From a phage, in NCBI GenBank assembly GCA_025611195.1, contig GCA_025611195.1_4718.2: a stretch of DNA of 64,000 nt; one strand, written 5' to 3'. Positions 1 through 37,355 of the stretch are shown in pieces (the stretch's first letter is position 1; each line of letters starts with the position of its first letter). The position numbers and the translations under genes are program-made. The notes beneath the pieces were generated by a model, which was not told the DNA's origin, ran no database searches, and saw nothing but the letters and a program-made list of their open reading frames with translations.

Positions 1-542
1 GGAAAACCAGGTCGGAAAATATATACTTGAATATGTGTTAAAGCGTTATCGTTACCTCCACCAACAGCAACATTACGACGTCCGGATGATGGGAAATATT
101 CTTTTAAGAACAGGGGATCGGTTGCCAATAAAGAAGCAGGCCAAGGATTAGCGGATGCGTCAACATCGAATTCGGTCCATCGCCATTTGCGTCCGGTATC
201 GAACCAGGTTGACGTACCACCGCCACGCACCGCAAGATTGCGTGCATCACGGGCACTGTATATTGATTCGATGTTTCGCCACCCACCTTTTGCGGCGTTT
301 GCCGCATAGCAAATCGCATTACCACCATTCTTCTTTTCGTAAACGGTTCGTTTGATATGAACACGGTCGATAAACGCTTCACCGTATTTGTTGACAAGTG
401 TTTGCGCAATATCACGAAGATCGTGCATATGAAAGGCGATGTCTTCGTTGTGGAACCACGTTGTCGGGTTCCAAACGGTGCCGTTTGGTTCGGCACACAT
501 CGATCTGATATTGTTGCGCTGATTAATCGCGATAAAGCCCAT
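1..542 (-). CDS. hypothetical protein, N-terminal part only (gene runs off window start)
   Basis: Minus-strand frame from ATG at 542 (GAGGTGG upstream) is open to the window edge, about 180 codons (MGFIAINQRNN...). Absent from the ORF track because it has no in-window stop. Replaces ORF 104..496, which is in another frame. Confidence 0.5.
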   Translation of the reverse strand, partial: MGFIAINQRNNIRSMCAEPNGTVWNPTTWFHNEDIAFHMHDLRDIAQTLVNKYGEAFIDRVHIKRTVYEKKNGGNAICYAANAAKGGWRNIESIYSARDARNLAVRGGGTSTWFDTGRKWRWTEFDVDASANPWPASLLATDPLFLKEYFPSSGRRNVAVGGGNDNALTHIQVYIFRPGF

Positions 543-34802: not shown

Positions 34803-35822
34803 TTACACCGCCACCTTAGCCTTGATAGCCGGATGTGATTGATATCCGACGAACACAAAGTCTTCGTAACGGTAATCCGTAATACTTTCCGGTTTACGTA
34901 CGATTGTTAGCTTCGGTAATGGATACGGCTCACGGCTGAGCTGCTCTTTAACCTGTTCGAAGTGGTTGTGATAGATGTGGCAATCTCCACCCGTCCACAC
35001 GAACTCACCAACGTCCATATTCAGCTGTTGGGCAAGCATATGCGTCAGCAACGAATATGATGCGATGTTGAACGGTTTCCCGAGCACTGCGTCGCACGAA
35101 CGCTGGTAAAGCTGACAGGATAAGGCACGTGTTGGTACGTTATGCGCATTCAACCAAAGTTCTGTTTCACTGTGTCGTACATCATCCGTAACCCACTGGG
35201 TTCTTAATACGTCATTGCGTTGAACATAACCAACGCGTTCATCGATGGTGAGCTCGTGGGTATAGAACTGATAAAATGAATGGCACGGAGCGAGATGCAT
35301 ATCGTCTAAATCACCTACGTTCCACGCGCTAACGATGATCCGTCGAGAATCGGGGTCTTCTTTAAGCTGGCGCATCACGTTTGCAATCTGATCGTGATGT
35401 CTAACATACACGAGGTGTTTTAGCATACCGTCATTAAGAATGCCGCAATACTCATAGCCGCGTTGCATCAACTCACGAGTACGTTCTGTATCGTGCGGAA
35501 CAACCACTTTGTAGTCGATCCATTCCCGCCATTGTTTGCCGTAAATCGGTCCTAGATTCCCTTCTTCGTCAGCCCACTCATTCCAAATACGAACACCGTT
35601 ATCTTGAAGATAAGCAACGTTTGTGTCGCCGTTAAGAAACCAGAGCAGTTCGTGGATAACGCTCTTAAGGTGAATCTTCTTGGTGGTTACCAGCGGGAAC
35701 CCTTTCTTCAAGTCAAAACGCATCTGACGTCCGAATACAGAACGGGTCCCGGTGCCTGTACGATCGGCTTTATCACGGCCGTTATCCATGATGTCTTGCA
35801 AAAGGTCCAAATACTGTTTCAT
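34803..35822 (-). CDS. thyA: thymidylate synthase with two insertions
   Basis: Near-colinear with E. coli ThyA (MKQYL.L.Q..., DRTGTGT, LLWFL.GDTN, SAWNV, catalytic [21 protein letters not shown]). Two inserts of about 35 and 40 aa, after WREW and after FYQFY; 339 aa against 264. Confidence 0.9.
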
Positions 35823-36022
35823 TTTAATCCTCTAAGTGTTTCAAGTAGTTCCTGAAATTTGTAACGATATTTAGAATCACTTAACGTGTAACAGCAACCA
35901 CGTAACACGTTATGCGCGTAATCAGCTTGTAAACCACGAACCTTCGGATCCAGTGATAGATTCAATGACGCGTCATCAAAAATCCACGCTTCAATGTTCT
36001 TCTTAGATTCCTTCGTTAACAT
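35819..36022 (-). CDS. hypothetical small protein
   Basis: Start moved to ATG 36022 (GAGGTGA upstream); the ORF-track start lies inside the stem-loop. ATGA overlap with thyA. Confidence 0.45.
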
Positions 36023-36146
36023 CGTTTTCACCTCGTAGTAAAAGTAAATAGAGTTTTGTCGAGACGCCCTAATTACATACAACGTAGGTTCTCCTGGCTT
36101 CAGAGAATTCTTAAAATCCGTTAGTTTTGATGGACAGGATAAGACA

Positions 36147-36175
36147 GCATAAAAGCCTCCCATTACGGGAGGCTT
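36147..36175 (-). promoter_or_regulatory. stem-loop AAGCCTCCC-ATTAC-GGGAGGCTT followed on the minus strand by TTTTATGCTG
   Basis: 9-bp stem 36153..36175 after the stop of 36187..36735; TTTTATGC at 36147..36154 (minus). Confidence 0.55.
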
Positions 36176-36186
36176 CATTAATCAGC

Positions 36187-36735
36187 TTATTTCACAAGAA
36201 CAGCGAATTCGAGAACGTAAATAGCTTCATCGTCCATCGGATTTGTTGTGGTATAGCCAACGAAGCAATAACCCATATCCACGATAAACTCGCTAAGTTT
36301 ATCGATGACTGATGCCTCGATGCGATCATCAACAGACAGACGACATTTACGGGTTATGTTTTGCCCGCGAGGAACACCAGCCAACACGGATAGAAAATGT
36401 ACGATCCGATTATTGGTTGTGAACTGCACGTAATCATCGTAGTGCTTAAGGTCTTTCATCGCAGACTCTACCGTCATCCGGCGACCAGGTGATACATACT
36501 CAGAATAAGAATAAGCTGCAATCGTGCGGCGGTCTTCAGTGAGGTAAGTATTCCCTTCGGGATGATAGCTCTCGATTGTTCCGTCTTCATAGGCGACGGT
36601 TACAACAGGTGCGCCGTACTCGTCGCGACCGAAATCAATCTTACATTTATTCGAAAGCGGTAGAACTGTACAAGGCTTTGCATTGTTCTCATCGGGGAGA
36701 TCGTAACCACTCATCATTTTCAAGAACATAGACAT
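36187..36735 (-). CDS. hypothetical protein, tandem paralog A
   Basis: MSMFLKMMSGYDLPDENNAKPCTV... resembles the 36822..37355 product. Confidence 0.55.
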   Translation of the reverse strand: MSMFLKMMSGYDLPDENNAKPCTVLPLSNKCKIDFGRDEYGAPVVTVAYEDGTIESYHPEGNTYLTEDRRTIAAYSYSEYVSPGRRMTVESAMKDLKHYDDYVQFTTNNRIVHFLSVLAGVPRGQNITRKCRLSVDDRIEASVIDKLSEFIVDMGYCFVGYTTTNPMDDEAIYVLEFAVLVK

Positions 36736-36821: not shown

Positions 36822-37355
36822 CTACTTAACGATCGCGATGATTTTGCCGCTCGCACCGGCGTAATATGCTGTTAATTCACCAGTAAACAACTCTTGTAAA
36901 AGACGATTTACGTGACTAACAAAGTTAGGATTGTCTGATTTTACAAACTCGATATTGCGCGTTTGTTTTATATCACGATCGATTAAACGGATTTCCAACA
37001 ACGCACAAATAAGGCGATCGTCGAGTTCACCACTCGCATCCAGCACTTCCCCATACTTCGTAGCACGGACGTCCGCATACATACGGTCAACATCATCCTT
37101 CCCAAAACCACAGGAATAGGCATACGTTGCGATGGTGTTACCATTGTCCATCACATAAACGTTACCACCTGGGTAATCGATAAATCGTTGATCCTTATCA
37201 CCATGAGCGACGAACTCCAGTGTCGGTCTACCCATCGAATCACGGTTGAATTCAATTGTGGTCAAGCGATCTGGTACCACATGCAACGTAAATGGTTTCG
37301 CATTGTTACGATCGCTAGTATCGCAGTTGCCCATTACTTTTACAATAACACTCAT
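36822..37355 (-). CDS. hypothetical protein, tandem paralog B
   Basis: MSVIVKVMGNCDTSDRNNAKPFTL... resembles the 36187..36735 product; AAGGA before ATG. Confidence 0.55.
   Translation of the reverse strand: MSVIVKVMGNCDTSDRNNAKPFTLHVVPDRLTTIEFNRDSMGRPTLEFVAHGDKDQRFIDYPGGNVYVMDNGNTIATYAYSCGFGKDDVDRMYADVRATKYGEVLDASGELDDRLICALLEIRLIDRDIKQTRNIEFVKSDNPNFVSHVNRLLQELFTGELTAYYAGASGKIIAIVK

Follow-up and report, generated by a model that had tools for sequence, protein, structure and literature searches.

Thymidylate synthase (TS) is a textbook enzyme that also serves as a drug target, and its structure has been solved hundreds of times; neither of the two modules considered here is present in any of the solved structures that we have searched. 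They are encoded by a thyA gene on a 64,000-nucleotide (nt) stretch of phage DNA (contig GCA_025611195.1_4718.2 of GenBank assembly GCA_025611195.1), referred to in its full length as the window, and the question raised by this locus is what a TS that can be aligned from end to end with the Escherichia coli enzyme does with two extra segments of 39 and 44 amino acids (aa). An original prediction, made from the letters alone, described a host-like TS with two phage-specific insertions, proposed that the gene had been acquired recently from an enterobacterial host and suggested that the insertions might alter oligomerisation, regulation or substrate specificity, for example toward an activity that modifies deoxyuridine monophosphate (dUMP). 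The reading that we favor, and to which we would give a little better than an even chance, is that of a canonical ThyA producing thymidine monophosphate (dTMP) with two inherited folded modules that enlarge or tune the homodimer interface, with no new chemistry. The gene has an existing GenBank annotation as a thymidylate synthase, and BFVD offers predicted models for its relatives; the inserts, by contrast, are apparently undescribed, our literature searches having returned no published account of them. They are conserved in the model phages PhiKZ, 201phi2-1, SPN3US and Goslar, and, placed as they appear to be where the subunits of TS share active-site elements, they provide a concrete hypothesis that can be tested.

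Identity of the gene and reality of the inserts

The thyA open reading frame (ORF) lies on the minus strand, as read from the list of ORFs (no strand had been named previously), with a Shine-Dalgarno sequence, GAGG, 9 nt upstream of a start codon that overlaps the stop of the preceding ORF. Pfam PF00303 covers the 339-aa product end to end (E=6e-116, 386.7 bits against a cut-off of 24.3), and the scores obtained with the NCBIfam thyA equivalogs NF002499 (429.4 bits, curated cut-off 405) and NF002497 (423.3 bits, cut-off 327) and with TIGR03284 (365.1 bits, cut-off 108) all exceed their curated thresholds; the top PHROG is 160, thymidylate synthase. Family scores, catalytic Cys, phosphate-binding arginines, uracil-specificity residues, hydride-transfer and folate residues and fold all agree in placing the protein with ThyA, and judged from its sequence the gene is the phage's own canonical folate-dependent enzyme. 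Alignment to the chains of E. coli ThyA (EC 2.1.1.45; PDB 2TSC, 1TYS) gives three colinear blocks, residues 1-101, 141-188 and 233-339 of the window protein corresponding to 1-101, 107-154 and 158-264 of the host enzyme (E. coli numbering is marked Ec in what follows), and the near-colinearity and the catalytic Cys in LAPCH noted originally are thus confirmed. The segments between the blocks are absent from E. coli ThyA. Insert 1 supplies 39 aa for five in E. coli, a net gain of 34, immediately past WREW, and insert 2 supplies 44 aa for three, a net gain of 41, past FYQFYT, one residue beyond the FYQFY originally given. The layout is as follows.

34803..35822, minus strand: thyA gene, an ATG-started ORF of 339 aa plus stop codon; folate-dependent thymidylate synthase
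35520..35822, minus strand: core block 1, aa 1-101 = Ec 1-101; R21, phosphate-binding loop, E58, W80, W83, Y94
35403..35519, minus strand: insert 1, aa 102-140, predicted strand-helix-strand-strand, in place of E. coli loop 102-106
35259..35402, minus strand: core block 2, aa 141-188 = Ec 107-154; R160/R161 (Ec R126/R127), LAPCH, interface strand iii
35283..35285, minus strand: C180 codon, catalytic cysteine (Ec C146)
35127..35258, minus strand: insert 2, aa 189-232, predicted longer beta-hairpin iii/iv plus three-helix bundle, in place of E. coli turn 155-157
34803..35126, minus strand: core block 3, aa 233-339 plus stop = Ec 158-264; Q240, R241, S242, D244, N252, D280, H282, Y284, C-terminus

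Could the extra segments be an artefact, that is, a frameshift, an assembly error, a misalignment or a mobile element of the intein or intron type? For practical purposes this can be dismissed. Both inserts are in frame and free of stops, gene calling on an independent contig, from a separate public assembly, yields an identical protein, the same segments are found in the Escherichia phage vB_EcoM_Goslar and in homologues from many other genomes, the ratio of nonsynonymous to synonymous substitution rates (dN/dS) is below 1 in each, and the fold is predicted with confidence throughout both. They had been considered too short to be inteins and this holds, even mini-inteins being much longer than 39-44 aa. 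Inserts 1 and 2 begin at I102 and H189 and end at V140 and R232, which are followed by R141 and A233, so that neither has Cys, Ser or Thr at its N-terminus or His-Asn at its C-terminus, and Pfam gives no Hint match.

Active site and expected chemistry

Catalytic, dUMP-binding and folate-binding residues are identical to those of E. coli ThyA at 26 of 27 positions, the remaining one being the conservative replacement I264V. The positions compared include R21, E58, W80, W83, Y94, R126/R127, L143, C146, H147, Q165, R166, S167, D169, N177, D205, H207, Y209 and the C-terminus (all Ec). The four phosphate-binding arginines (Ec R21, R166, R126' and R127') are R21, R241, R160 and R161 in the window protein, the uracil-specificity residues Ec N177, Q165 and H147 are N252, Q240 and H181, and E58, Y94, W80, W83, L143 and F176, which serve in abstracting the proton, in hydride transfer and in folate closure, are all kept. 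The sequence terminates in ...KAKVAV, with its last residue at the position of E. coli I264. Of these residues N177 is the accepted determinant of the preference for uracil over cytosine, and H147 and Y94 are parts of the proton-abstraction network (PMC8670742). The enzyme would thus be expected to convert dUMP and methylenetetrahydrofolate into dTMP and dihydrofolate.

The suggestion that the inserts shift the enzyme toward modification of dUMP, for example as a dUMP hydroxymethylase feeding thymidine hypermodification, draws on a genuine relationship, in that the hydroxymethylases of dUMP and of deoxycytidine monophosphate (dCMP) are homologues of TS (PMC8989533). T4 dCMP hydroxymethylase (gp42) and the phage dUMP hydroxymethylases belong to the same superfamily and use the same covalent Cys mechanism. 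In addition, Ec Q165 has been lost in some near relatives (Q165A in Goslar; CFYMMRSND in a group carried on 222-kb elements that are described below), though not in the window protein, which retains N177, H147, Y94, E58, W80, W83, Q165 and the C-terminal position and scores above the thyA equivalog cut-offs. The Asp found at Ec 177 in the dCMP enzymes is replaced by Asn252, the hydride-transfer residues are kept, the protein scores with the ThyA models, and models of the T4 Gp42 type superpose poorly on it, with a query-normalised TM-score (TMq) of 0.54. The inserts, moreover, lie about one strand-length away from the subunit's own catalytic center.

Hypermodification of thymidine requires, besides a dUMP hydroxymethylase, a 5-hydroxymethyluracil (5-hmU) DNA kinase, aGPT-Pplase/AADT, dTTPase/dTMPase and related genes (PMC8989533). 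No 5-HMUDK, aGPT-Pplase, dTTPase/dTMPase or glycosyltransferase is present among the best 25 of 36 Pfam families and the best 25 of 83 PHROG families for the 83 ORFs of the window, and no companion gene for thymidine modification is annotated in the Goslar record over all of its length but ~100-119.6 kb; as most Goslar genes lack annotation, absence is unproven. A thymidylate kinase, the next step of the normal pathway to thymidine triphosphate (dTTP), is annotated in Goslar (Goslar_00008). The search for a 5-hmdU kinase or other base-modification genes that had been recommended thus came back empty for the families and annotation covered, and with the active site intact the proposed switch toward dUMP-modifying chemistry is not borne out. 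A change of product or a hydroxymethylase role is unlikely, and as an explanation for the inserts in particular we consider it very improbable.

Predicted structure of the inserts

An AlphaFold2 (AF2) calculation based on the 120 closest homologues produced a poor core, with a mean predicted local distance difference test (pLDDT) score of 55.8 that reflects an alignment that is too uniform, and a diverse alignment was used instead. The resulting model has a pLDDT of 97.4 and a predicted TM-score of 0.94, with no segment of low confidence, so that the structural modeling that had been proposed as a check indicates that both inserts fold confidently as surface modules. In the model insert 1 runs through a strand (101-107), a helix (112-120) and two further strands (124-130 and 135-143), at pLDDT ~97, and insert 2 is bounded by strands iii (181-190) and iv (232-244), both lengthened, with helices at 193-202, 204-213 and 217-226. 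Insert 1 is hence predicted to be a beta-alpha-beta-beta unit and insert 2 a three-helix bundle on an extended hairpin, each autonomously folded.

Searches with Foldseek return E. coli TS at E=4e-44 and a target-normalised TM-score of 0.96. The best query-normalised score among solved structures is only 0.75, again for E. coli TS and covering the core alone. In the collection of predicted viral structures, however, the model of the TS from Pseudomonas phage 201phi2-1 (BFVD B3FJL1) superposes on the whole of the query (TMq 0.93) at 36% identity, and both modules would therefore be structurally conserved between the chimalliviruses of E. coli and of Pseudomonas. When insert 2 was searched alone no PDB chain matched it, apart from a chance match at E=1.3. 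Surface insertions that leave the chemistry of TS unchanged have precedents in the 50-aa small-domain insert of Lactobacillus casei TS and in two eukaryotic inserts (human residues 117-128 and 146-153). The second of the eukaryotic inserts lies, consistent with the alignment, in the same loop as insert 1; insert 1 differs from it in being longer and in forming a structured beta-alpha-beta-beta unit. Insert 2, as an extension of the iii/iv interface hairpin, is without a counterpart in the solved TS structures searched.

Distribution among phages and selection

The gene is orthologous to Goslar_00141 (gp141, QBO63934.1), which is annotated as 'putative thymidylate synthase' and with which it shares 92% nt identity and, in the product, 94.7% aa identity. 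A 24-kb stretch surrounding thyA is collinear with Goslar at 92.9% nt identity and 97% coverage, so that on genome comparison the window is a close relative of this phage, which is described in published abstracts as a nucleus-forming jumbo phage (Chimalliviridae). Goslar gp141 has both inserts; it is unlike the window protein in a divergent patch, discussed below. ThyAs of 337-351 aa and 58-65% identity are encoded by SPN3US-like Salmonella phages (SPN3US gp229), by the Erwinia phages Caitlin, phiEaH2 and Asesino, by Cronobacter phage CR5, by Escherichia phage EC001 and by numerous contigs of 220-227 kb in assemblies of E. coli, Salmonella and Shigella; for SPN3US gp229 and the Erwinia and Cronobacter enzymes named the range is 58-63%. 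Alignment shows both inserts in all of these, insert 1 being shorter in CR5; Erwinia phage Stratton is the exception and has insert 2 without insert 1.

We have searched 1.84 billion cluster representatives (50% identity) exhaustively and without a profile, obtaining the 150 nearest, of which 131 are of usable length. Insertions are present at both sites in 62 of the 131, at site 1 only in 21, at site 2 only in 29 and at neither in 19, with lengths that range from 0 to ~280 aa at site 1 and from 0 to 93 aa at site 2. Forty-four cluster representatives have in common the insert 1 motif W.D.[KR][IV]V...(helix)...GY...V..[KR].[IH]DQI, with conservation of 70% for D103, 78% for K/R105, 68% for G122, 76% for Y/F123 and 76% for R/K141, and 80 have in common the insert 2 motif FQFYT.EL[ST]..ER...LD..[GN][VI]P.R.LS, with R196 conserved at 90%, E195 at 77%, P230 at 92% and V/I229 at 93%. 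The window sequence fits both. So does the 488-aa ThyA of the PhiKZ-like Pseudomonas phage PA_ZH1, which is representative of a PhiKZ gp235 and 201phi2-1 type that is more distant (46-49% identity for PA_ZH1, 36% for the 201phi2-1 model) and that differs in a third insert, which adds ~120 aa between W83 and G88. The 74-kb Delftia phage RG-2014, a member of the Schitoviridae, carries insert 2 alone, and the 360-kb Klebsiella phage fENko-Kae01 carries insert 1 alone; both are present in the 110-kb circular Klebsiella element GArcari-2022b. The occurrence of insert 2 alone in Stratton and RG-2014 and of insert 1 alone in fENko-Kae01 establishes that the modules are independent of each other.

None of the bacterial ThyAs that we have compared contains the inserts. 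Of the description 'phage-specific', then, the contrast with bacterial enzymes stands; a restriction to this genome does not, given that both sites are occupied in 62 of the 131 representatives. The inserts appear to be old, conserved features inherited within a large and diverse lineage of phage ThyAs rather than a recent or genome-specific novelty. A role specific to the phage nucleus was also considered and rejected, because one or both inserts are present in carriers that are not known to form a nucleus, namely RG-2014, fENko-Kae01 and the circular element.

Comparison of the window gene with that of Goslar gives dN/dS values of 0.056 for insert 2, 0.38 for insert 1 (from ten differences only) and 0.105 for the core, which indicates that both inserts are under purifying selection. 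The core loop Ec 192-195 (window 267-270) shows covariation with whether insert 2 is present, at a mutual information of 0.28-0.57 to which phylogenetic confounding may contribute, and this suggests that the loop is the packing site of the helical bundle.

Some further variation within the family may be mentioned at this point. Several relatives have 250-280 aa at the site of insert 1 and others 100-200 aa; a Pfam scan of those with 100-280 aa at this site returned the TS domain only, with no intein or endonuclease save for one sub-threshold NUMOD-like match. The third insertion of the PhiKZ-type ThyAs, ~40-120 aa in length, lies at the site of the small-domain insert of the L. casei enzyme and bears a conserved motif, KPETAxY...T.E; the Goslar/SPN3US clade is without it. 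Residues 234-253 of the window protein (35064-35123) correspond to the patch that is sharply divergent in Goslar gp141, where 25 of 45 nt are identical compared with 92% over the whole gene. The changes in Goslar include Ec Q162M, Y164L and Q165A, and LAPCH becomes LPACH; the window protein keeps the canonical motifs, and a second homologue shares the divergent patch of Goslar. The 222-kb group reads CFYMMRSND, and GVD where others have GGD. Positions that are normally invariant in TS are evidently drifting in the Goslar/222-kb clade. Gene conversion by host thyA was considered as the source of the canonical patch in the window and rejected, as the 33 of 45 nt shared with E. coli do not stand out from the remainder of the gene.

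Origin of the core

A recent acquisition from an enterobacterial host had been proposed on the basis of the high similarity to E. coli ThyA, and here the data lead to a different conclusion. All 5426 complete E. coli genomes match the gene at ~69% nt identity only, in the three core blocks. In a codon-by-codon comparison with thyA of E. coli 042 the core is 67.7% identical in nt and third codon positions 44.5%, and no 45-nt window exceeds 37 of 45 identities. Such low values at the nt level and at third positions imply a long separation rather than a recent transfer; there is no tract of high identity, and the nearest relatives are phage proteins that bear the inserts. In aa the core is 68.9% identical to E. 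coli ThyA over all 264 core positions, compared with 64-68.6% for ThyAs of unrelated bacteria (Paenibacillus, Acidobacteriota and metagenome-assembled genomes of Alphaproteobacteria), a set that is biased toward the query because exact query peptides were used in the scan, which returned 264-aa bacterial ThyAs only; a core identity of ~68% is thus not peculiar to enterobacteria. For annotation purposes this is an ordinary thyA, and it should not be read as evidence of recent capture of a host gene or of thymidine hypermodification.

Position at the dimer interface and possible function

TS is an obligate dimer, and the location of the two insertion points can be traced through engineered and mutant enzymes. 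Residue T155 of L. casei TS aligns with E. coli T103, within the loop that insert 1 replaces, and E188 is matched in the alignment by Ec G136 (window G170), which is located between strand ii and the catalytic Cys; the titles of two studies of the T155C/E188C enzyme (Gokhale 1994 and Velanker 1999, cited in PMC13479805) speak of two symmetric engineered disulfides 'across the dimer interface'. Human Y202 corresponds to Ec Y153 and window Y187, two residues ahead of insert 2, and is located at the perimeter of the dimer interface near the phosphate-binding loop of the partner (PMC9831607). In human Y202C the modified residue CME202 makes water-mediated contacts with D173 and R175 of its own subunit and with K47', T55' and D254' of the other (PMC9831607). 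These correspond to Ec D124 and R126 and to Ec K18', T26' and D205', the latter flanking the phosphate-binding loop and active-site end of the partner. By analogy we infer that both inserts emerge at the rim of the interface, insert 1 facing the catalytic-loop segment of the partner and insert 2 lying next to R126/R127, the pair that the subunit contributes to the active site of its partner. Effects on oligomerisation or on regulation, as originally suggested, are accordingly plausible with both insertion points on the interface perimeter, whereas the change in specificity suggested along with them is not supported.

On the reading that we favor the inserts would extend or brace the homodimer and adjust those active-site elements that are contributed across subunits. 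The consequences are a matter for speculation and might include altered stability, half-sites behavior or regulation, or possibly a bias toward phage-phage dimers over mixed dimers with the 69%-identical host ThyA, in which the interface residues F30 and Y153 are the same. During infection the dTMP would most likely be formed in the cytoplasm and passed on to the thymidylate kinase of the phage; a TS-GFP fusion has been reported to be excluded from the phage nucleus in infections of the PhiPA3 type (PMC9067925). A more specific version, in which the nearly invariant Glu-Arg pair E195/R196 of insert 2 reaches the partner's phosphate-binding loop and active-site entrance and forms, together with insert 1, a phage-specific cross-subunit gate, is in our estimation a long shot. 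Were it correct, such a gate could change half-of-the-sites behavior or allosteric control or block mixed dimers with host ThyA, and it would amount to a previously undescribed layer of regulation on a much-studied enzyme, common to many phage ThyAs.

Several observations weigh against the interface reading. Knock-down of TS in PhiKZ gives a weak phenotype only (PMC12571901), from which the enzyme may itself be non-essential; taken together with a cytoplasmic location, this points to an auxiliary function in nucleotide supply. The inserts are mildly acidic (calculated pI 6.0 for insert 1 and 5.4 for insert 2) and have no recognisable family match, so that they provide no positive pointer to a partner or ligand, and insert 1 is loosely conserved in sequence and dispensable in nature, as in Stratton. 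The placement of both relative to the partner subunit is transferred from the human and L. casei structures by alignment. Finally, in a neighbor-joining tree of the cores, which is star-like for the divergent representatives, is poorly sampled for bacteria and does not discriminate between a single and a multiple origin of the inserts, E. coli ThyA comes out as the sister of the enteric jumbo-phage clade, a position that would be awkward for a single ancient origin unless rates differ strongly or recombination has occurred. With the core of CR5 ThyA 79.9% identical in aa to E. coli ThyA, this placement makes an old ancestry of gammaproteobacterial type possible for the core of the enteric jumbo-phage clade.

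Two other accounts of the inserts have to be weighed. They could be neutral surface decorations, the product of loop expansion at two sites where TS is permissive, kept because they are stably folded. Both sites are indeed hot spots for insertion and deletion, as the length ranges given above attest, all four combinations of inserts occur among the 131 representatives, Stratton keeps its gene without insert 1, and eukaryotes have an 8-aa insert at the site of insert 1. It is more difficult to explain on this basis why R196, E195 and P230 should be kept at the levels quoted across clusters that are less than 50% identical, why the dN/dS of insert 2 is below that of the core, why phages of E. 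coli and of Pseudomonas still share the fold at 36% identity or why a core loop covaries with insert 2, and we regard neutrality as unlikely, if still deserving of serious consideration. Alternatively, the inserts might be docking sites for other proteins, either partners in a phage complex for the synthesis of deoxynucleoside triphosphates (dNTPs), such as has been proposed for T4, or a regulator of phage or host origin, and would then have no action within the TS dimer itself. T4 Td has been reported to be a member of a dNTP synthetase complex, and modules that are predicted to be autonomously folded and exposed, and that are conserved in phages and in no bacterial ThyA among those compared, would be well suited to such a purpose. 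The carriers, however, are very different (chimalliviruses, an N4-like schitovirus, a 110-kb circular element) and share few other genes, so that a common partner is not obvious, and no conserved gene adjoins thyA across Goslar, SPN3US, Caitlin and CR5. We consider docking improbable.

Related elements and neighboring genes

One of the relatives was encountered outside the phage collection. A 'plasmid' of an E. coli clinical isolate, NZ_CP173450.1 (region compared, 184278-201284), is a circle of 221,873 bp that encodes almost exclusively hypothetical proteins together with a giant SLT-domain protein, and it carries a 344-aa two-insert ThyA of a family that recurs in assemblies of E. coli, Salmonella and Shigella, on contigs of 220-227 kb that number in the dozens. 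This 222-kb element looks like an episomally carried jumbo phage, without a close relative in the phage collection.

In the window the ORF directly upstream of thyA (35819-36178, minus strand) is 119 aa long by mechanical calling. Its true start probably lies internally, since the counterpart in Goslar (Goslar_00142) and that on an independent contig are called as 67 aa only. Further upstream, two ORFs of 182 and 177 aa (36187-36735 and 36822-37355, both minus strand) resemble tandem paralogues, with a shared N-terminal pattern M..K.M....D..D.NNAKP. Small paralogous families are found elsewhere among the ORFs of the window, with four members of Pfam DUF7941, five of PHROG 323 ('transcriptional regulator, D5-like') and two of DUF285, and the ORFs also include a GNAT acetyltransferase, an HD hydrolase and an NAD-dependent DNA ligase.

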